Under the pieces are notes generated by a model. That model was not told the DNA's origin and did no database searches. It saw only the letters and a program-made list of their open reading frames with translations. Source: Alphaproteobacteria bacterium (GTDB lineage Bacteria; Pseudomonadota; Alphaproteobacteria; UBA7887). Taken from it: DNA of 12,279 nt. Location: NCBI GenBank assembly GCA_965216755.1, contig CBDCGL010000006.1:1-12279 (forward strand), read 5' to 3'. Position numbers and translations under genes: made by a program. Shown piece by piece: positions 3,474 through 12,279 of the stretch. How positions within the stretch are numbered: the first letter of the stretch is position 1; each line of letters starts with the position of its first letter.

Positions 3474-5756
3474 TCAGGTGTCCTTTTTGCCTGGGGTTTC
3501 GTCGTCAAATGCGTTGTCGAGGTCCTCGGGGGAAACATCCTCGATCTCGCGGGCGGAGATCTTGACCGTTCGGCCTTTTCGCGTCTTGTTGTTCGGGAAC
3601 TTGTCAAAGACGTGGATGATGTAATCGCTGGCCTCGTATTCGCCGGGGACAAGCTGCTTCTTCAGAGTTGTCTCCCCGTAATTGTCGTGACCGACACATT
3701 CCTCAATGACATTCCGCAGTGACATTTCAAACGGCCGGTCCGATAGGTCGGCGTCACCAACAAGCTCGTTGGCGAGCCCCGTCCACCACATTTTCTGTTC
3801 GTCTTTTTCGCTGAGCTGTGCGTTCGGGTCGAAGAAAAATGCCAAGCTGTCTTTTTTAATCCCATCGGCGTCATGGCCAAGGGGGACGACCCGGCCACGC
3901 ATGCATAGCTTGTCCTTCCACCCCCGGCCGCGTCTTGCTTTCACGCTTGTCAGCCAAGTTTGAAATTGCGTTTTGTCAGCATCAGTAGAGGTGGCCGACC
4001 AAAGGAGATCGACGGCGGCCGACGTCGCCGATGAACCCCGAACGCCGCGGGAGGGGTCTTTGCCACTGTGATGAACCCCGAACGTGAAGCAGTCGAAGGT
4101 GTCCCGGATTGCATCCATCCACTTGGTCAATTCACTGGCATCTTGCGCCGAGTTCTCGTCCAGCTGACCGGCCCACCGGGCGACCGTATCAATGACCACC
4201 AAGCCGACGTTGCCACATTTGCGCTTACAGGCCGTCAGGAACGCTTGCCGGGTCCCCTCGTCCCGAAAATTTGGTAACTCTGAGAAGATATGAACCCGCG
4301 GGCACGGCTTCGTATCGTTGGCCTCCAGCCAAGCGGCAACACGTAGTTTGATATCGTCCTCACCTTCACCAGTGAGGTAGATGACATCAGGCGTTGAGGT
4401 CGTTTTGTTTCCGGCCCAATCCATACCTCTTGCGACCCGTTGAAGGAGATCCAAGATCACGAAGCTTTTGAATGCAGACCATGATCCGTAGAGAATTCCC
4501 GTGCCCTTTTCCGGCAGGACATTCGCAATAAGCCAACGGGGATCGGGCATCGCCAAATAGTCATTCTCGCTACGACACCGCTCAATCCAGTACTCGGCGT
4601 CAGCGGGCGTCAGCTCCTTTGACTTGTTGTCATCATCGTTGTCATTGGCGTTTACGAGCCTGGCATGCGCGAGTTCTGGCTCGCCCAGTGCTTCCGCATA
4701 TCCCACCATCCGCGCTCGAAAACTCCTAGGCGCATGACTGTTGTGAGCATAGGCGTAAGCGTTTCGGATCTTCCGGTCTAACTCGCGCGGCTCCCATTCG
4801 GGCTCACAACGCGGATTGAAGTAGGCGTCCATCAGCTCCAGGCATTTGTCCCGGGAGATGCTGAAGTCACGCACGTCGCACGCCACGTCATAGGTTCGTT
4901 GGTCGCCACCTTTGCCTTCGATCGCCGGAGCGGTCGACCTCAAGTAAGCCATGACGCTTTCGATGTCGTACAGATCGTCATACGCCTCGAATTTCCGGCT
5001 TCGATCTGTCTCGGGTGTGGCTTCTTTCAGCCGTTGAACCAACCATTCGGGGGCAGCCGTCGGTTTGCTGCCATCCGGCAAAGGCGCATAAACTTTCACG
5101 TAGCCACCGAGCCCGCGCGTATCGACGCAGGGGCCAAGCTTGCAGGCACTATTACTGGTTGGGGCGGGTGTGGTCACGAATAGGTGCCTGCCGCCAGATG
5201 GACTGTCTTGATGGCAGGCACTCGGGACTTCTTCGCCTCCCTGGGAGACCATGGTCTTCAGGGTCTCCGCGCCACTGACACCGTCCTTTGTGTCTAGGTC
5301 AACGGCCATCAAATGGCCGGAGCCGTCGGCGACTTCATGCCCCATAGCAGCACCGAGGTCGTGCCCCTCGTCAATCCAGCCATCGATCACTTTGATGTCG
5401 TCTGTGAGGATCGCTTTCCAGCTGACGCCGGGGATCGGCATTTTGGTGCGCGCCGTCAGTGGTAGAAGCGGGATACCATGAGCCACCCAAGTCCGGGCCC
5501 AGCGCTTCAGGTCGGCCCGGTCGATCGGATCTTGGAGGTTGACGCCTGGAGGCGGTTCATTAGCCGGATTACCAAAGTACTGAAGACCAAAATCAAAGTC
5601 ATGTGTCAAAATATCAAAAGATGCATTGAGTAATTGATCAGATTGATCTTGACATTTCGAGCTGATGATACTAGTTTGTCTTTCAGTTTTCATTGTCATC
5701 GTCCTTTTTGAACCCCCGGTTGCTTCCCTGACCGGGGGTTTTCTCTTTCTATTCAT
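3474..5756 (-). CDS. Bifunctional DNA primase/polymerase (Prim-Pol, AEP) + PriCT-like helical domain + AAA_25/RepA-like SF4 helicase
   Basis: AEP motifs AVDLDTKDG, SPSGGRHLF and VDTRGLGGYV. Helical domain FNPRCEPEWEPRELDRKIRNAY. Walker A variant GSWSAFKS, Walker B LVVIDT, and HHSGKD...RGSSA. The start is either 5756 (ATGA overlap with the xis stop) or 5693 (AAAGGA SD 8 nt upstream). Confidence 0.92.
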   Translation of the reverse strand: MNRKRKPPVREATGGSKRTMTMKTERQTSIISSKCQDQSDQLLNASFDILTHDFDFGLQYFGNPANEPPPGVNLQDPIDRADLKRWARTWVAHGIPLLPLTARTKMPIPGVSWKAILTDDIKVIDGWIDEGHDLGAAMGHEVADGSGHLMAVDLDTKDGVSGAETLKTMVSQGGEEVPSACHQDSPSGGRHLFVTTPAPTSNSACKLGPCVDTRGLGGYVKVYAPLPDGSKPTAAPEWLVQRLKEATPETDRSRKFEAYDDLYDIESVMAYLRSTAPAIEGKGGDQRTYDVACDVRDFSISRDKCLELMDAYFNPRCEPEWEPRELDRKIRNAYAYAHNSHAPRSFRARMVGYAEALGEPELAHARLVNANDNDDDNKSKELTPADAEYWIERCRSENDYLAMPDPRWLIANVLPEKGTGILYGSWSAFKSFVILDLLQRVARGMDWAGNKTTSTPDVIYLTGEGEDDIKLRVAAWLEANDTKPCPRVHIFSELPNFRDEGTRQAFLTACKRKCGNVGLVVIDTVARWAGQLDENSAQDASELTKWMDAIRDTFDCFTFGVHHSGKDPSRGVRGSSATSAAVDLLWSATSTDADKTQFQTWLTSVKARRGRGWKDKLCMRGRVVPLGHDADGIKKDSLAFFFDPNAQLSEKDEQKMWWTGLANELVGDADLSDRPFEMSLRNVIEECVGHDNYGETTLKKQLVPGEYEASDYIIHVFDKFPNNKTRKGRTVKISAREIEDVSPEDLDNAFDDETPGKKDT
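5649..5677 (+). promoter_or_regulatory. Sigma70-type promoter antisense to the primase gene
   Basis: TTGACA (5649-5654) - 17 nt - TAGTTT (5672-5677). Confidence 0.6.
5684..5748 (+). ncRNA. Predicted counter-transcribed antisense RNA (~65 nt)
   Basis: Bounded by the antisense promoter and a plus-strand terminator. Complementary to the SD and the ATGs at 5699 and 5693 of the primase mRNA. Ends are estimated. Confidence 0.55.
5711..5748 (+). terminator. Rho-independent terminator on the antisense strand
   Basis: Perfect 10-bp stem AACCCCCGGT (5711-5720) / ACCGGGGGTT (5731-5740), then TTCTCTTT. There is no U-tract in the minus direction. Confidence 0.75.
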
Positions 5757-5959
5757 GGCATGGCCTCCGCCGTCTCTTTGGTTTCACTGGCCGTATCGAG
5801 CATTCGGTCCAAGGCCGCCACGGGCACAAAAAACCGATTACCGATACGAATAGTCGGGATGTCCCCCTTCTTGGCGGCTGCATAGGCGGTTGGTGCCGAC
5901 ATTCCCAGGAACCGACGCGCAGCCTCTTTCAGGGGGATCGCTTTACGTTCGTCGCTCAT
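5753..5959 (-). CDS. Excisionase/AlpA-like winged HTH protein (HTH_17-like)
   Basis: IPLKEAARRFLGMSAPTAYAAAKKGDIPTIRIGNRFFVPVAALDRML. Strong SD AAGGAG. First gene of the primase operon. Confidence 0.88.
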   Translation of the reverse strand: MSDERKAIPLKEAARRFLGMSAPTAYAAAKKGDIPTIRIGNRFFVPVAALDRMLDTASETKETAEAMP

Positions 5960-5994
5960 AAAATCTCTCCTTGAGTTCTAACTTGTCCGGAATT

Positions 5995-6022
5995 AGTATC
6001 GCAAAAACTCAGAAAAAGTCAA
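5995..6022 (-). promoter_or_regulatory. Putative promoter of the xis-primase operon
   Basis: Minus-strand TTGACT (6022-6017) - 16 nt - GATACT (6000-5995), in the divergent intergenic region. Confidence 0.55.
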
Positions 6023-6078
6023 TTAAACGCGCTCCATCTGAGCGACGTTCGAACCGGACCGGTAAAGGATTGAAAAGA

Positions 6079-6717
6079 ATGGCAAAACCAGGGAGGCCGG
6101 CGGGGTCGGGAAAGAAGAGTTCGGCAATCATGATCCGGATGGCGCCGGACCTGCGCGAAGCGCTCGACAAAGCGGCCAAAGCGGATGGGTGCACGATGAC
6201 TGCGGAAGTCGAGCGTCGCCTGCGCGCCACTTTCGACCCCCTGACGGAGAAGACGTGGGCGGACGGCATCGAACTCGCACTCGCCAGCACGCCACAGTCT
6301 TATGGGCTGCTATTGCTGATTGCTGACTTGGTGGATCGTGTGCAGGTCACGTGCATTGGCACGTGGCACAAGGATGCGTTTGCTCGTCAGAAGGTGCGAG
6401 AGGCCATCATGCTCGTGCTCGACGCCCTGTTGCCCGAGCCCGCAGAGGGGATGCCAGCGCCGCAGCCAAAAAAAGGCTCAACGGCATGGGCGCTTGGCCT
6501 CGACCCCGCCCTGTCCAACTTCGTGAGCGCTGTGGAGCAGGTGTTGCAGAAGCCCGAAACAATCCGCGGGATGCTGCGCGATGATGTGCCGTACTGGCCG
6601 GCGCCATCAGGAACTACTCTCCGCTATGTGGCTATTCACGAAAAGCTGGGTAAAGAGTTGGTCCACGAATTGGCACTCTCTCTTCATCGAAAGTGGCCTC
6701 AAAATAGGACAGAATAA
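6079..6717 (+). CDS. Arc-like ribbon-helix-helix regulator with an extra C-terminal helical domain (212 aa); probable repressor
   Basis: AIMIRMAPDLREALDKAAKADGCTMTAEVERRL matches the Arc pattern. ATG 6079 has an AAAGGA SD. Divergent from xis. Confidence 0.8.
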   Translation: MAKPGRPAGSGKKSSAIMIRMAPDLREALDKAAKADGCTMTAEVERRLRATFDPLTEKTWADGIELALASTPQSYGLLLLIADLVDRVQVTCIGTWHKDAFARQKVREAIMLVLDALLPEPAEGMPAPQPKKGSTAWALGLDPALSNFVSAVEQVLQKPETIRGMLRDDVPYWPAPSGTTLRYVAIHEKLGKELVHELALSLHRKWPQNRTE

Positions 6718-7022: not shown

Positions 7023-7555
7023 AGCAGATTTCGAGATTCTATTCGTCGCGAGGGTCCGCGACGAATACAAAACGGCCGAGTATGCCCCGAGCAAGGTGCC
7101 CTTTTTCCGGATAAGTCTTTGAAAGTCCGTACGAATATCGTTTAGGGATTGAGCGCTTGCGGCGCGCAAGGGCCAAGAACCCGCCAAACAAACCCGCCGC
7201 TGCTCCAAAAATTTCGCGGAGGCAATGGCCGCTAAAGGTCACCGCGATCGCGCGGACTTCCCGCGCAATTTCCGCCTAAATATGGTTCCGGATCAATGAG
7301 TTAGGTCCTCCGGGCCACCCCGAGTACCTGCGAAATCGCCCGCCCACTCACCCACACCCAGGCCGCCGCGCCTTGGCTATTTCAATTGCCCCCAATCGGC
7401 CTTTGATGCCCCAAAACCCGCAGAATTCTGCGCCCTTCCGGAGCCATGCACGCCACGCATACCGACAGTAGCGTCAACATGCTTGAGGTAGTTGACAATT
7501 ATTCGGCTAGAACCCATGTTTATTGCGGGACACAGGCTTGAGAAGGATGGCCACA

Positions 7556-8227
7556 ATGGCTCGAAACCGCCAAAAAGCAGTCGCTTATTTCCGCACATCG
7601 AGCGCCGCGAACGTCGGCGAGGCCAAGGACACGCTTGCCCGGCAGCGCGCGGCGGTAACCGTTTACGCAAAAGCCAACGGCATCGAGATTGTCGGCGAGT
7701 TCTACGATGCCGCGGTCTCTGGCGCCGACCCCGTCGATGCCCGCCCGGGCTTCGCAGAGCTCCTTGGCCGCATTGCAGGCAATGGCGTGGGCATGGTGCT
7801 TGTCGAGGACCCTTCACGCTTCGCCCGTGATCTGATGGTCCAAATGACCGGGCACGAGATGCTTAAGCGAATGTGCGTCGATTTGGTCGCTGTGAACGCC
7901 CCTGAACATTTCCTCGAAGACACTCCCACGGCCACACTGGTCCGGCAGGTCCTGGGGGCAATCAGCCAGTTTGAGAAGGCACAGCTGGTCATGAAGCTCA
8001 AGGCGGCCAGAGACCGCAAGAAGGCCGAGACAGGCCGCTGTGGGGGCCGTAGGCCCGTTCCAGCCGCGACGGTCAAGGAAGCCCGACGCTTGGCGCGTCG
8101 CAACCCCAAGACCGGTAGGGTCCGGTCACTGCGAAGGATCGCCAAGGAGCTCGCGGATCTTGGCCATCTGGGCCCCTCGGGCAACGAGTACGGTGCCGAA
8201 AGCGTCAAACGCATGCTGGCCCGCTGA
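7556..8227 (+). CDS. Small serine recombinase (resolvase/invertase family) with a C-terminal HTH
   Basis: AVAYFRTSS catalytic motif, DAAVSGA, RPGFAELL, VEDPSRFARD, and C-terminal SLRRIAKELADLGH. ATG 7556 has an AAGGA SD; 7547 is an alternative start. Confidence 0.92.
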   Translation: MARNRQKAVAYFRTSSAANVGEAKDTLARQRAAVTVYAKANGIEIVGEFYDAAVSGADPVDARPGFAELLGRIAGNGVGMVLVEDPSRFARDLMVQMTGHEMLKRMCVDLVAVNAPEHFLEDTPTATLVRQVLGAISQFEKAQLVMKLKAARDRKKAETGRCGGRRPVPAATVKEARRLARRNPKTGRVRSLRRIAKELADLGHLGPSGNEYGAESVKRMLAR

Positions 8228-8231
8228 CGTT

Positions 8232-8299
8232 GCCCGTACAGCCACGCTAAGGCATTGATTTGACCTGGGTGCCCGCCACCTCAGCGGCCCTGTACGGGC
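8232..8299. repeat. 10-bp inverted repeat enclosing an exact IHF consensus
   Basis: GCCCGTACAG (8232-8241) / CTGTACGGGC (8290-8299). AATCAATGCCTTA on the minus strand at 8248-8260. Confidence 0.6.
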
Positions 8300-8607
8300 C
8301 TCTGTGGGCCCCGAATTCAGCATAATGCGGCACCGTGCGCGGCCCCCGGCATGCCGGGAAGTCAGGGACCCCTGCACCCAAGAGAGGTCGCCCACGCAAA
8401 GAAAGTGGATTTTTGCGCAAAATCTTCCTGCGTTTTCGACCCGGTCTTTGAATACCGCCGCCCCAGCGCATTCAGATCAAACCCGATCTCGAAATATATC
8501 TGGGGTCAAAATCTCCGAAATCCTCCCGTTTTTCCCCACCCCTGGCCTGCTCGGGCGCTCCTCGTGGATGCCCAATATTCCTATGATCAATATGTACGAT
8601 ATTTCTA

Positions 8608-8636
8608 TTGACTGCATCATTATCCATTGGGACAAT
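8608..8636 (+). promoter_or_regulatory. Putative sigma70 promoter of the rightward operon
   Basis: TTGACT (8608-8613) - 17 nt - GACAAT (8631-8636), with a TGn extension, in an AT-rich patch. Confidence 0.65.
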
Positions 8637-8670
8637 GAGGGGAATATGAAGCGAACAAGGGACGAGATTG

Positions 8671-8991
8671 ATGTTGGCGACTGTCCAGAGTTGGTTCAGT
8701 GGAGAGCTTGAAGAGGGGTCTTGGGACACCTTCCGAGATCGTTTGACTGCGCTCTTCGACGACCCGACGGCAGAGAACGCTGAGGCGATCGTCATTGCAG
8801 CCGACCACCTGTTCAGACAGGCCGACCAGGGAACCAATTCCGGAGTAAAGGTGGCCGATATCGAAGCTGCGGCGCGAGCCCTTGAAACTCTAGCGCTCGA
8901 CCCGTCGGTACCGGATCTGTTGGCCGTCCGGGCGGGCTCGTTGCTCGGCTCACGTCAGGTGTGGAAGCGAGGGCTGCGCCATGGCAGCTGA
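8671..8991 (+). CDS. Hypothetical helical protein, paralogue A
   Basis: First long ORF after the promoter. Aligns with the next ORF. Start uncertain (8668 TTG or 8671 ATG). Confidence 0.8.
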   Translation: MLATVQSWFSGELEEGSWDTFRDRLTALFDDPTAENAEAIVIAADHLFRQADQGTNSGVKVADIEAAARALETLALDPSVPDLLAVRAGSLLGSRQVWKRGLRHGS

Positions 8992-9316
8992 CGTTCACAC
9001 GCCCCCCAATCAGCCGCATGGTGCCGGTGGTGCTGTCGGAGCCGTGGCGCGTAAGGTTTGGCCTGAATTTCACGGTCGCCTGATCGCGTTGCTATCGGAC
9101 CCGACGCCTCTGACTGCCGCCGAGGCAGTGGCCGCTGCGGAATATCTCTTTGCCCTCCGCGATGCCAACACCCATGCCGTCTCCAGCGACGATGTGAAGG
9201 TGGCCGCGGACGCGCTCGCGACCATAGCCCTTCATCCGTCTGTGCCCGACGATGTCGCCCTGCGCGCCGGAATTCTCCTCGATAGCCGCCGCCGTTGGCG
9301 CAGCAAGGAGGGTTGA
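8981..9316 (+). CDS. Hypothetical helical protein, paralogue B
   Basis: Overlaps the previous stop, with a GAGGGG SD. Shares RLxALxxDPT and ALxPSVPDxxAxRAGxLLxSRxxW with paralogue A. Confidence 0.82.
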   Translation: MAADVHTPPNQPHGAGGAVGAVARKVWPEFHGRLIALLSDPTPLTAAEAVAAAEYLFALRDANTHAVSSDDVKVAADALATIALHPSVPDDVALRAGILLDSRRRWRSKEG

Positions 9317-9319
9317 ACG

Positions 9320-9736
9320 ATGGCCGCCCAGATAAGTCCGCAAGCGCCCATGCGACTGATTGACCTGAAGCGGCAGCCCACCGAGGCGGAGTTAGCCCGG
9401 GCTCGCAAGAACGTCTCAGCCAATCCGGTGATCGCGACGGTCGTGTATGAGTTGGTTGAAGTCGAACCACCGTCTTTTGACCGCCATACAAAGCAGACTT
9501 TCCCGGGCAAGCGTTTGGCCGATGTTCGCGCCTACGCCGGCCGAAAGGCTTGGCCGGGCGCCCTGGTCGCCGCCACGGGTGGTCTACCGCCCATCAACGA
9601 TCCGGCCCAATCGCCCGAACTTCGCCGAGTGTTTGAGAATTTGGCCGTGGACGGCTTCACGCACGTGCAGGCCCCCCACTCATACCCGCGTCCAATCTGG
9701 GACGTCATCGATGGCTCCGAACCCTGGGGCCGCTAA
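9320..9736 (+). CDS. Hypothetical protein (138 aa)
   Basis: AAGGAGG SD. Starts 3 nt after the previous stop, in the operon direction. Confidence 0.78.
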   Translation: MAAQISPQAPMRLIDLKRQPTEAELARARKNVSANPVIATVVYELVEVEPPSFDRHTKQTFPGKRLADVRAYAGRKAWPGALVAATGGLPPINDPAQSPELRRVFENLAVDGFTHVQAPHSYPRPIWDVIDGSEPWGR

Positions 9737-9755
9737 CCACTGAAGGAGAAATCCA

Positions 9756-10427
9756 ATGACTACCGAAACACAAACCAAACCGCAAAGGATCGAAGATCAT
9801 CCGGTCCACCAGCAACCTCATGTCAGGCTCTTTGCCCCCTGGCTGCGCTACGTTGACGAGGAGTTGGTGTATGTCATCGGCCGGCTCCGGGGCTCCGTCC
9901 AACGCAACTTCGGTCGTCTAGACCGCGTGCCGGGACCCGACGCGATTGAAAGTGCTGTTGATCACATCGCCAATCAGCGGACCGAGCAGGCTTGCACCGT
10001 TCTCCGCAATGAATGTTCAGGCGATCCGCTACCAGTTGTTACGCAAATTGATGCAGTTTGGTTGCATTTAGCGCAAAATCACTTGATGCCCCGCCAAAAG
10101 GATGAGCCCAAAGCATGGGCCAAGCTGGCGACCAATGCCGTGACCAAGGCTATCGCCGATCTGGTCAATGACGAAATCATGGCCCTCCGCGACCGGAAAA
10201 CCGATCGCGCCGCTCGGCTTGAAGACCAGCGTATCGCCCGGGCCAAGATTGCCGCCAAGACCCTACCGAAGGTCGAAGCATTGATGGCTGAACTTGGCGC
10301 CTTTCGGCAAATCCCAACGCCGCCATTCGTCACGGAAGAGAGTGTCCCCCAAGCCATTGAGGCCTTGGGCGATGTACAGCGCGTTCTGACGCAAGCAGCT
10401 GAACAACCGCCGACTGATAGTCAGTAA
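9756..10427 (+). CDS. Hypothetical alpha-helical/coiled-coil protein (223 aa)
   Basis: GAAGGAG SD. Long charged Ala-rich helix AIADLVNDEIMALRDRKTDRAARLEDQRIARAKIAAK. Confidence 0.82.
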   Translation: MTTETQTKPQRIEDHPVHQQPHVRLFAPWLRYVDEELVYVIGRLRGSVQRNFGRLDRVPGPDAIESAVDHIANQRTEQACTVLRNECSGDPLPVVTQIDAVWLHLAQNHLMPRQKDEPKAWAKLATNAVTKAIADLVNDEIMALRDRKTDRAARLEDQRIARAKIAAKTLPKVEALMAELGAFRQIPTPPFVTEESVPQAIEALGDVQRVLTQAAEQPPTDSQ

Positions 10428-10454
10428 CCAACTAACCAAACGGAGTGACCAAAA

Positions 10455-11207
10455 ATGTCAGAATTTAACAATGAAAATGGCGGTGGCGCCCCAGCCGCAC
10501 CTGGACCGGCCCCAACGCCAACTGAGCCCGCGGCACCAGCGCCTCAGACCATCCGGGCTCGTCCAATCAACGAGGCTCTATCACCTGCCGAGCAACATCT
10601 CCTCCGTGATGCGGCAAAGAACGCGCCCAAGGATTTTGGTGCCGGGATCAAGGCCGCGTGGGAGCAAATCAATGCTGCACAAGCCAACGCACCAACTACT
10701 ATGGTTGATCAATCAAAGCCGGCGCCAGTCCAGGGGACGCCGTATCCACAGGCGCCGGCAGAGGTCCAGGGGGTCAATTTCGACAACCTGGACCTCACTA
10801 ATTCCGAGCAACGTAGCCAGGTTGATCATGCCCTTGCTGAAGCAACCAATGGTGCTTTAACTGTCGGCCAGGTCGAAGGGATTAGCCAGGCGATCGATCT
10901 CATGCCAAGCAAACTCGAAAATCTCTGGCTGGAAAGCGAACAGAACCCCGAGGTCTTCGGCCAAAAGCTGACGGAGGTGATTGAACAAGGCGACGACCGG
11001 GTGCGGGAGACTGTGTACGGTGGCAGCGCCGACGCTTTCAAGGCGGGCATGGCTGAGATCAGTTCCGCTCTCGACAATATCGGCGCGAGTAATGAGCTCC
11101 GAGCTCAGATTAACGAGAGCCTAGTCTTGTCGGATGTCCGTGGCCACACTCAAATGCTCGCACTTGCACGCGTCGTCAACAAGCGGACGGCCCATGCTGC
11201 CGATTGA
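10455..11207 (+). CDS. Hypothetical protein, capsid-scaffolding-like (250 aa)
   Basis: GGAG SD. Pro/Ala-rich disordered N-terminus and acidic helical body. The scaffolding function is an inference. Confidence 0.7.
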   Translation: MSEFNNENGGGAPAAPGPAPTPTEPAAPAPQTIRARPINEALSPAEQHLLRDAAKNAPKDFGAGIKAAWEQINAAQANAPTTMVDQSKPAPVQGTPYPQAPAEVQGVNFDNLDLTNSEQRSQVDHALAEATNGALTVGQVEGISQAIDLMPSKLENLWLESEQNPEVFGQKLTEVIEQGDDRVRETVYGGSADAFKAGMAEISSALDNIGASNELRAQINESLVLSDVRGHTQMLALARVVNKRTAHAAD

Positions 11208-11382
11208 CCGGGATCATGTCTGGGCGAAATTCTGGACCTTCCTTCGCGCACGGGCTCCACGATCTCCCGCAGGAGCTGTCTCCCACGTCCAAAACCTTCT
11301 AAGGGACGAGCGCAAGCGAAAAGCACGGGCGAGAGCAGAGCGTAAGGCGCAGCGCAAGTTGATGAAAGCTAACAATGAGTGA
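11194..11382 (+). CDS. Small basic hypothetical protein (62 aa)
   Basis: ATG 11194 overlaps the upstream stop, and its own stop overlaps the next ATG. K/R-rich C-terminal helix. Confidence 0.6.
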   Translation: MLPIDRDHVWAKFWTFLRARAPRSPAGAVSHVQNLLRDERKRKARARAERKAQRKLMKANNE

Positions 11383-11797
11383 GGGAGCCGAACGTCTATT
11401 CGGGGCTGAGCCGGACATTGGCCAATGGCACCAACCCGAGCGGACGACTGAACAAAACCTATGGGCCGCCGTCCTCGTTCAGATGGTTGAAGATGGGCTT
11501 TCGGCGAAACCTTTGGGGCCTCATGATCACGACCGACGTATTGCCCGCAGTTGGTTCACGGACCCAGGTTTCTCGAAAGATTTCGCCATGGTGTGCGATA
11601 TGGCGGGCTTTGACCCGCAGTTCATCCGTGATCGGTTTAAGAATTTACTGGCAGAGCAAGAGGGCAATCCAACACCTCACAAACCTGGCTCACGCGTCCG
11701 GAGGATCAGCCGGCCGCCCTCAGTGTTCACTATCACTTCGATGCCTAAGCAGTCGGCGAGCCCGCTGGCACTTACGTCTCCGCAATCCTCGCTTTGA
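11375..11797 (+). CDS. Conserved phage-type hypothetical protein (possible regulator)
   Basis: Pattern EQNLWAAVLVQMVED...ARSWF...DFAMVCDMAGFDPQFIR, recalled from phage hypothetical proteins. The last ~40 aa are low complexity. Confidence 0.75.
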   Translation: MSEGAERLFGAEPDIGQWHQPERTTEQNLWAAVLVQMVEDGLSAKPLGPHDHDRRIARSWFTDPGFSKDFAMVCDMAGFDPQFIRDRFKNLLAEQEGNPTPHKPGSRVRRISRPPSVFTITSMPKQSASPLALTSPQSSL

Positions 11798-11934
11798 CCA
11801 ATCGCCTGGGCGACTGCGCCGGACGGTATGGTCAGGCAGGCCGGGTCCTCAATGTCACATTCAGGTTTCAATTCGCCAAGTGGCAGGCCATTCATGGTCA
11901 CCAGCAACGTGGCGTAGGTGATCAGCTCAAGCAT
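11677..11934 (-). CDS. Small acidic Cys-containing hypothetical protein coupled to the integrase (85 aa)
   Basis: The ATG overlaps the integrase stop by 8 nt. Hydrophobic N-terminus and 4 Cys. Overlaps the tail of the opposite-strand gene by 121 nt. Confidence 0.45.
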   Translation of the reverse strand: MLELITYATLLVTMNGLPLGELKPECDIEDPACLTIPSGAVAQAIGQSEDCGDVSASGLADCLGIEVIVNTEGGRLILRTREPGL

Positions 11935-12277
11935 TGTTCAATTCCAATCCTGGGTACTTCACAGCTTCCACCACTTCCCGCAATGCCGGCAGATCTACGC
12001 CGGCAGGGTTATAGACGCCGTAAGTGAATGATCGTTCATGGCCAACAATCAGTGCCGCGCGGTCCCGATCGATCCCGGCCCGCTCCAGGGCATTGACGAA
12101 ACACTTCCTGAATGAATGGAACACCAACCGATCGCGCGTGACGCCGCGCTGGCGGCGGAACGCGGGGAACCGGCGCGACAGGCTGTATGCCCGCTTGTTG
12201 TCTGGCCCGCCTGGTTTCAAACCGGGCCAGAGTGGCCCTGAGCCGATCGCGGCCACGTATTCCAACACACCAAGGTC
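11927..12277 (-). CDS. int: Tyrosine recombinase/phage integrase, C-terminal part (5' end outside the window)
   Basis: HSFR (HxxR), VGH and TYGVY catalytic motifs. The frame is open to the window edge (DLGVLEYV). Confidence 0.92.
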   Translation of the reverse strand, partial: DLGVLEYVAAIGSGPLWPGLKPGGPDNKRAYSLSRRFPAFRRQRGVTRDRLVFHSFRKCFVNALERAGIDRDRAALIVGHERSFTYGVYNPAGVDLPALREVVEAVKYPGLELNNA

Positions 12278-12279
12278 GA

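Follow-up and report, generated by a model that had tools for sequence, protein, structure and literature searches.

Ancient, one-sided tandem paralogy in a very rare orphan protein family, opening an accessory gene block on an alphaproteobacterial island

The island and its accessory block

The window, by which we mean the whole stretch of DNA analysed here, is the complete contig C6 (12,279 nt), from an alphaproteobacterial assembly of 5.0 Mb in 11 contigs. The backbone of the island is a minus-strand unit at 3474-5959, in which an AlpA-type gene (5753-5959, minus strand; HTH_17 in Pfam, phrog_66 in PHROGs) is followed on its 3' side by the gene of a replicase with Prim-Pol and AAA_25 domains (3474-5756, minus strand; Pfam, and phrog_906 in PHROGs). 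Divergent from this unit lies a 248-aa ORF with weak matches of ribbon-helix-helix type, and a serine recombinase gene of the resolvase/invertase type (7523-8227, plus strand; Pfam Resolvase at E 4e-26, phrog_95 and phrog_125) stands directly upstream of a block of ORFs that we call A to G. Beyond that block lies a tyrosine recombinase gene, cut by the end of the contig so that its C-terminal 116 codons remain (11927-12277, minus strand; phrog_1 and Pfam Phage_integrase). The Phage_integrase match of this fragment (E 1.2e-4, 22.3 bits) lies under the 27.1-bit Pfam cut-off, and the fragment shares 47% identity with the C-terminal end of a 534-aa integrase encoded at C11:2411087-2412691. Elsewhere on the contig are a RelE-type toxin and its HTH antitoxin (427-1083), four ORFs that have no explanation, and 84 codons at 2-253 on the minus strand for which no Pfam family was found. 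The assembly is a marine alphaproteobacterial one.

Many of these genes are without a family. When the 18 contig ORFs were scanned, 12 had no Pfam family and 11 no PHROG, while PADLOC gave no match for 12 contig ORFs and NCBIfam none for 13. At E<=1e-20 the replicase has 23 relatives of Prim-Pol/AAA_25 type, with 34% identity to the best foreign one, and not one of the 23 is on a contig of the sizes that carry members of the A/B family described below. Neither the replicase nor ORF E matched anything in viral sequence scans.

Terminal repeats, direct or inverted, are absent from the contig, and the N-terminal two thirds of the integrase were found neither across the would-be junction of the contig ends nor at other contig ends. 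Because a 209-codon stop-free frame crosses this junction, the element could nevertheless be circular. In the three sequencing runs that contain this DNA, which come from one study and cover it about twofold, there is no contig linking the two ends.

Taken together, the integrase, the AlpA-type regulator and the primase/replicase make up the set of a PICI/P4-like backbone, with an integrase fragment that scores below the Pfam cut-off. A set consisting only of integrase, AlpA and primase is what the SatelliteFinder authors call a 'Type C PICI', and the parts of their article that we draw upon warn that such three-gene sets may be satellites or defective elements, mobile elements of another kind, or genes aggregated by chance (PMC10085698). 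Marine Alphaproteobacteria carry many uncharacterised satellites, according to the portion of PMC9618062 used here. Hijacking genes (terS, ppi, rpp, cpm, sid, psu, delta or capsid) were found in no contig ORF using Pfam, PHROGs, NCBIfam and PADLOC. As far as gene content can tell, the island may be a phage satellite.

Behind the resolvase gene, a 21-nt inverted repeat (8232-8299, with arms at 8232-8252 and 8279-8299 that are 81% complementary) marks the end of the upstream unit. It is followed by a promoter-like site on the plus strand (8608-8636), TTGACT-17-GACAAT with a TG before the second hexamer, that matches the consensus at 9 of 12 positions and ends some 32 nt before ORF A; such a site is weak evidence alone, since the scan of 8200-12279 found two where shuffled sequence predicts 1.1. 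The earlier note had proposed that A and B open an operon, and this arrangement of repeat and promoter-like site fits the proposal. From there, seven ORFs without family match run on the same strand, A and B being the first, and converge on the truncated integrase gene.

Downstream of the pair, ORF C (9320-9736, plus strand; 138 aa) has AAGGAGGG before its start and no family, and the same lack of a family holds for ORF D (9756-10427, plus strand; 223 aa), for which a word-based protein search returned only the query itself among 800 candidates and tblastn against phages and/or plasmids returned nothing. ORF E (10455-11207, plus strand) encodes 250 residues with a pI of 4.6 and a Pro/Ala-rich N-terminus. 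It has no match in Pfam, PHROGs, the PDB or a tblastn search of phages, and its best hits in the Atlas are unnamed clusters with many viral members (top score 0.93). The nearest named Atlas cluster, at 0.85, has PF05396, a T7 capsid-assembly family, on 45% of its members, which is a weak lead toward a putative capsid-assembly protein of scaffold type and the only hint that the A-G block might be morphogenetic. ORF F (11134-11382, plus strand; 82 aa, pI 11.7) is a doubtful gene, because it overlaps E by 74 nt and is preceded by no ribosome-binding motif. The last of the block, ORF G (11375-11797, plus strand; 140 aa), has no family.

Paralogy and asymmetry of ORFs A and B

ORF A (8668-8991, plus strand) encodes 107 residues when read from a TTG codon, or 106 from the ATG at 8671 that the earlier note had taken as its start; the protein is acidic and has no N-terminal arm. 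ORF B (8981-9316, plus strand; 111 aa) is the conserved copy, and its arm, GAGGAVGAVARK, occupies residues 14-25. A overlaps B by 11 nt (ATGGCAGCTGA, 8981-8991, plus strand), B being in the +1 frame relative to A with a GAGGG 8 nt upstream of it, and this layout fits translational coupling. A purine-rich GGGA/GAGGG motif precedes the starts of both genes. Both also have the GC profile of coding sequence, with values at codon positions 1, 2 and 3 of 0.67, 0.50 and 0.67 in A and of 0.76, 0.54 and 0.66 in B.

The two had been described from the sequence as diverged tandem paralogues, with about 40 identities over about 82 positions and one gap, and BLASTP yields the same alignment: 40/82 identities (49%), 51/82 positives and one gap, for 60.8 bits and an E value of 2e-18. 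Without composition correction the score rises to 71.6 bits, and 200 shuffled versions of B score 10.2 on average (sd 6.6) and 22.7 at most, so the pairwise comparison comes out clearly on the side of paralogy. The other structural claims made for the pair were accurate as well. The aligned parts are residues 19-100 of A and 27-107 of B, leaving residues 1-18 of A and 1-26 of B as N-termini that do not align, and both frames are intact while overlapping by the 11 nt given above.

At the nucleotide level the resemblance is of a very different kind. Over the 81 aligned codons, A and B are 50% identical, and identity at the first, second and third codon positions is 0.60, 0.63 and 0.26; synonymous differences are saturated (pS 0.81) and pN is 0.39. 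Third positions are thus random (26%) and first and second positions 60-63% identical, and therefore the duplication must be old and both copies must have been under selection at the protein level. From the same codon-position identities and the pS and pN values, it follows that the likeness of A and B is kept at the protein level and does not come from a recent DNA repeat. A profile of the family, run against the 263 stop-to-stop frames of at least 30 aa in the window, matches two of them, A and B (E 2e-48 and 1e-37), with all the rest at E >1, and these two remain the only matches across the 5.0-Mb assembly. A and B are almost certainly ancient tandem duplicates of one gene.

The two copies have not diverged in the same manner. 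An N-terminal arm of the form G-[FLA]-GG-x-x-G-x-V-A-R-[KNR] is found in B and in all five relatives that we could identify in other sources (see below), that is in 6/7 members, and is missing from A only, which has an unrelated N-terminus in its place. The relatives have basic C-terminal tails beside their basic N-terminal arms and isoelectric points of 10.0-11.5, B is near neutral (pI 6.2), and A is acidic (pI 4.7). A maximum-likelihood tree joins A to B as its sister, with moderate support only (ultrafast bootstrap 81, SH-aLRT 84), and the long branch of A is uncertainly placed. The branch leading to A measures 1.55 and that leading to B 0.088, so that the branch of A is about 17 times longer. 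Judging from motif, charge and tree, B is the conserved, ancestral form, and A the fast-changing copy that has lost the arm and turned acidic.

A very rare family and its predicted fold

We searched 1.84 billion representative proteins with a HMMER profile built from A and B together, at a threshold of E<=0.001, and obtained 14 proteins: A, B, five short ones (108-117 aa) that match full-length in a single stretch, and seven long ones (670-3183 aa). The long matches (E 6e-6 to 5e-4) were rejected as relatives, as Pfam finds Ig, cadherin, fn3, PKD or MucBP repeats in them, which makes them repeat-driven false positives; they are not HEAT proteins either. The five short proteins are also recovered when B alone is compared to them by BLASTP (P0005 at 2e-17, P0003 at 2e-16, P0006 at 1e-11, P0004 at 7e-8 and P0013 at 3e-6). 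All of them come from metagenome sources (Logan, ENA, JGI), and they are unnamed or labelled 'hypothetical protein'.

Outside this small set the searches were blank. A word-indexed search of 5.8 billion proteins with B returned only B itself among 78 candidates, and tblastn of B and of P0006 against phage and/or plasmid records gave no match. Pattern searches confirmed no family member among metagenome contigs (0/595 for the family, 0/483 with P0013), viral contigs (0/7 with P0013, 0/90 with P0006 and 0/600 with a family query) or genome contigs (0/575 and 0/176 with two family queries). Among the 23 genomes of the order, the family matched only in the genome that contains the window. Foreign matches did surface in wider sets of genomes, and we judged them to be chance: in 61 related genomes (own included) one at E 0.002 with two stops inside and one at E 0.009 within a 751-aa frame, and in 401 genomes of the class (own included) two partial ones at E 5e-4 and 7e-4. 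In the Atlas, B reached a best score of 0.81, which is under the level that counts as more than a lead, and for the family as a whole Pfam, PHROGs, NCBIfam, PADLOC, a PDB sequence search and the Atlas were blank or insignificant. The literature on phage satellites, including those of Alphaproteobacteria, yielded nothing on the family; the datasets of PMC9618062 lay outside the scope of this survey and could list a matching element.

Judged by these profile and BLASTP matches, the family is real, and it is extremely rare. It is in none of the libraries searched, so that the accessory block, pair included, is new sequence space carried by a backbone of a known kind. The contigs that carry the clusters of the five relatives measure 12,524 nt; 11,341 and 11,189 nt; 11,059 and 4,982 nt; 1,667 nt; and 1,618 nt. 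Because each cluster sits on contigs of different sizes, there would be one detectable family copy per foreign contig. Four independent contigs of 11.0-12.5 kb, beside the 12.3-kb one studied here, hint at a discrete element of that size.

The AlphaFold models of the two proteins are all-helical. A is predicted to have five helices (pLDDT 80.7) and B four (residues 16-39, 43-61, 69-84 and 90-110; pLDDT 84.7), the arm of B running into the long first helix (16-39). In both models the helices form stacked hairpins joined by short D-P-x-x-P turns, and DSSP counts no strand. With Foldseek, neither model found anything at E<=0.001 in the PDB or among the BFVD viral models. VIA-align places HEAT/ARM-type solenoids and designed helical repeats as best PDB neighbours, with Z scores of 8.9-8.2 for A (best match: Z 8.9, rmsd 3.1, 97 residues aligned) and of 7.9-7.3 for B, and for helical repeats a Z under about 13 may reflect a mere common arrangement.

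At the sequence level, none of the 7 members matched the Pfam models of HEAT (HEAT, HEAT_2, HEAT_PBS, HEAT_EZ), ARM or TPR repeats at E<=10, save for one TPR_12 match at E 0.079, and the best PDB sequence match, to the AP-2 alpha solenoid, is insignificant (E 0.088). An internal duplication within the family proteins was considered and finds no support, as hhalign of the N-terminal half of the family against the C-terminal half gives a probability of 1%. The earlier note had called the pattern HEAT-like. What holds of this, loosely, is the shape, since the models are hairpin stacks with HEAT/ARM neighbours at generic Z scores; membership by sequence is not borne out, with no HEAT/ARM Pfam match in any of the seven members at E<=10. 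'HEAT-like' is, in a loose sense supported by the predicted models, a fair word for the shape, and assigns no family.

The same searches bear on a second suggestion made for the pair, a resemblance to small terminase subunits with a role in packaging. In small terminases an N-terminal helix-turn-helix domain precedes the helices that oligomerise and, in many cases, a beta barrel, and their gene adjoins that of the large terminase. No small-terminase family was found for A or B at E<=0.01 in Pfam and PHROGs, nor in NCBIfam, and lowering the bar changed nothing: Pfam gave none for any of the 7 members at E<=10, and PHROGs gave none for A, B or any of the five relatives at E<=5. Scans of the 18 contig ORFs with Pfam and PHROGs detected no large terminase, on a contig that is incomplete at its integrase end, and no capsid gene was recognised on it. 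TerS and Rpp are not among the PDB matches listed by Foldseek and VIA-align for the two models, and the viral fold search gave a single 'terminase small subunit' at rank 16, with E 1.7 and a probability of 0.30, which is not meaningful. With no TerS family, no terL among the 18 ORFs and strandless models in place of a winged helix-turn-helix, the packaging suggestion finds no support in these results.

Candidate roles and known systems

What is well supported is that the tandem paralogy is ancient and asymmetric and that the family, an orphan with five distant relatives, is very rare; any function is putative. The proposal that we favour, and that we hold tentatively, is that A and B form one hetero-oligomer in which B does the binding and A, which has no arm, modulates it or serves as a decoy. 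A heterodimer was also one of the two options raised in the earlier note. The two proteins would be made together from one message, through the 11-nt overlap and with a ribosome-binding site of its own for B, and would act as a single hetero-oligomer. The arm and tail of B might contact nucleic acid, another phosphate-bearing ligand or a partner protein, and A, deprived of the arm, would tune B as a modulating or decoy subunit. The pair would then work for the five ORFs that follow it, all of them unexplained, and the integrase/AlpA/prim-pol island that carries them is possibly a phage satellite. Within this proposal, binding of nucleic acid by this particular B is weakened because B itself is not basic (pI 6.2), and no ligand- or DNA-binding family was recognised for A or B in Pfam, PHROGs, NCBIfam, PADLOC, the PDB sequence search or the Atlas.

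An alternative is that A and B do not bind each other and are independent specificity variants, each acting on a different target, be it helper phages, host factors or defence systems; for helper phages, the earlier note had raised this as its second option. Small helical-repeat proteins typically bind proteins, both copies are intact and constrained at the protein level, and they differ most in N-terminus and charge, a kind of difference that a new target would be expected to bring. However, divergence has been one-sided (1.55 for A against 0.088 for B), and A has lost a motif that 6/7 members keep, which resembles the taking up of a new role more than an exchange of one specificity for another; equimolar co-production is also favoured by the way the two genes overlap and are coupled. 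We regard this alternative as unlikely.

The pair could also consist of small DNA-binding regulators, controlling the A-G block or the switch for replication and excision of the island, with A as an acidic anti-regulator. The first genes of mobile-element accessory operons are often regulators, and A and B are the first genes behind the promoter-like site; moreover, the five relatives have pI values of 10.0-11.5 with basic arms and tails at their two ends. Yet the models contain no helix-turn-helix, ribbon-helix-helix or zinc motif, no DNA-binding family matches, B is not basic, and the region 8200-8700 holds no operator-like repeats besides one hairpin. It makes regulation by direct DNA binding a rather unlikely role.

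A bolder scenario unites the pair with the rest of the block, and we offer it as doubtful speculation. The A-G block would serve to exploit a helper, in a family of marine alphaproteobacterial phage satellites, about 11-12.5 kb long, that has yet to be described; B-type proteins would be the conserved signature of this family, and A an antagonist to which the duplication gave rise in the present lineage. B would be a two-hairpin solenoid whose Gly-rich arm grips a target in the helper or on DNA, and the acidic, arm-less A, together with B and the scaffold-like ORF E, would constitute a switch for taking over capsids or packaging.

It is improbable that A is simply a decaying duplicate without function and that only B works. 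Such decay would account for the very long branch of A (1.55), the loss of the family motif and the shift in charge. Nevertheless, a frame of 107 codons has stayed intact while synonymous sites became saturated, 49% amino-acid identity has been kept against random third positions (26%), and A retains a coding GC pattern, a ribosome-binding motif and a confident model (pLDDT 80.7), all of which speak against decay.

Very improbable, finally, is that A and B are TerS-like or Rpp-like and retarget the terminase of a helper to the island: the integrase/AlpA/prim-pol backbone common to P4-like and PICI satellites (as stated in the cited parts of PMC10085698), the many uncharacterised satellites of marine Alphaproteobacteria (in the cited portion of PMC9618062) and the weak scaffold-type lead for ORF E speak for it, but there is no TerS or Rpp family match, no terL among the 18 ORFs, and the strandless, all-helical models of 107-111 aa differ from the winged helix-turn-helix of Rpp, a protein of 144-153 aa (in the cited part of PMC6739421). 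What is left of our expectation goes to something beyond hetero-oligomer, variant, regulator, decay and packaging.

If the couple of a conserved subunit and a decoy subunit is true, it would be a compact natural case of a duplicated adaptor gene that split into a working copy and a regulator, and it would offer a first handle on an accessory operon whose ORFs all lack a family. Satellite-type elements are abundant and almost uncharacterised in marine Alphaproteobacteria, and a signature gene for one of their lineages would help to find and sort such elements.

Among known systems, the closest in predicted shape are the HEAT/ARM solenoids, such as the C-terminal HEAT domain of TAF6 (4atg), Rix1 (8ptw), the trunks of AP-2 and AP-3 and designed repeats. 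The likeness lies in the stacked antiparallel hairpins, of which those proteins have long arrays, whereas A and B would have only two in about 110 aa. A second comparison is with the Rpp proteins of E. coli PICIs (RppA, RppB, RppC), considered here with the N-terminal domain of lambda TerS (6HLK, 6HN7, 1J9I). Rpp proteins are also small proteins of integrase/AlpA/primase islands and, like A and B, occur as diverged homologues. As described in the parts of PMC6739421 that we rely on, Rpp consists of three helices and a beta hairpin with a coiled-coil dimerisation helix, and the winged helix-turn-helix, beta hairpin included, is what RppC and lambda TerS use to bind DNA. Compared with Rpp, A and B have fewer residues and, in their predicted models, no such hairpin.

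At the level of the whole island, the comparison is with the Type C 'PICI-like' elements and the marine VEIME satellites, as presented in the cited parts of PMC10085698 and PMC9618062: an integrase, an AlpA and a replicase are shared, as is the marine source, and 12.3 kb is within the size range of satellites. Our island differs in that it is known from its genes alone and carries no recognised hijacking gene.

As for the idea of a doubled small protein working as one unit, a precedent exists in a satellite. The Delta protein of P4 is a covalent head-to-tail duplication of an Ogr-type activator, a zinc-finger protein whose two halves are fused in one chain. A and B are made as two chains with a different predicted fold, so Delta serves as an analogy only, that of a small regulator or adaptor duplicated in a satellite with both halves acting as one unit.

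Contig ends and the genome assembly

The integrase gene at 11927-12277 (- strand) is interrupted by the end of the contig, so that only a fragment of it can be read, and we found no terminal repeat on the contig itself. A stop-free frame of 209 codons crosses the junction that would form if the contig were circular, and the N-terminal remainder of the integrase was found neither across this junction nor on the other contigs of the assembly. The contig may be either a fragment or a permuted circle.

Near the left contig end, a stretch of 169 nt (84-252) is 91.7% identical to a chromosomal sequence of the same assembly (C11:3427591-3427759) that lies about 2 kb away from another tyrosine integrase gene. 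Comparison with Rfam families, tRNAs and Pfam families gave no match for the stretch, and it may be an island-end or regulatory module in common with the chromosomal site.

The assembly also overlaps itself at other places: the opening 400 nt of contig C8 are repeated at 15,735, the ends of C11 are found again near 3.96 Mb, C5 and C10 have ends in common (98-99% identity), and the terminal sequence of C7 has an identical counterpart in the chromosome. Among the small contigs, several may be copies that are redundant or arose by read-through, and the contig studied here (C6) may have been assigned to this genome through binning alone.

Possible element size and a second island

The longest contigs bearing members of the family to which the tandem paralogues ORF A and ORF B belong measure 12,524, 11,341, 11,189 and 11,059 nt (metagenomic clusters P0004, P0006/P0015 and P0013). 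These lengths are close to the 12,279 nt of our contig, a hint that the element may be a discrete unit of about 11-12.5 kb.

In run X3, taken from a different sample in the same study, 181 bases of ORF A (8737-8917) recur with zero differences on a contig of 727 nt (depth 13.9) whose flanks on both sides of the match differ from our sequence. This contig may represent a mosaic relative of ORF A, or it may be a chimera that arose during assembly.

The same genome carries a second island (L008, C11:2411087-2415331), which adjoins a tRNA-Glu gene. It encodes an integrase of 534 aa with 47% identity to our integrase fragment, and a Prim-Pol replicase with 29% identity to ours over 622 aa. No genes of the A/B type were detected elsewhere in the genome.

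Other genes of the island

A gene pair at 427-1083 is likely an addiction module of the island. It consists of a gene for a RelE-type toxin (matching Pfam RelE at E 8e-7 and phrog_5869 at E 4e-26) and, 3 nt downstream, an antitoxin-type gene of the HTH_3 kind (matching phrog_2104 at E 3e-24). A basic ORF of 248 aa (5971-6717) is divergent from the alpA-replicase operon and gives weak ribbon-helix-helix-type matches at residues 46-99, to TacA1 at E 0.065 and to PHROG families of partition proteins at E 1e-3 to 2e-3. This ORF is a candidate for the master regulator of the island.

ORF E (10455-11207, + strand), which lies in the block headed by ORFs A and B, encodes an acidic protein whose N-terminus is rich in Pro and Ala. 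The Atlas clusters closest to it (score 0.93) are unnamed and have many viral members, and in the nearest named cluster (score 0.85) 45% of the members carry the T7 capsid-assembly family. This is no more than a lead that the block may be involved with capsid assembly.
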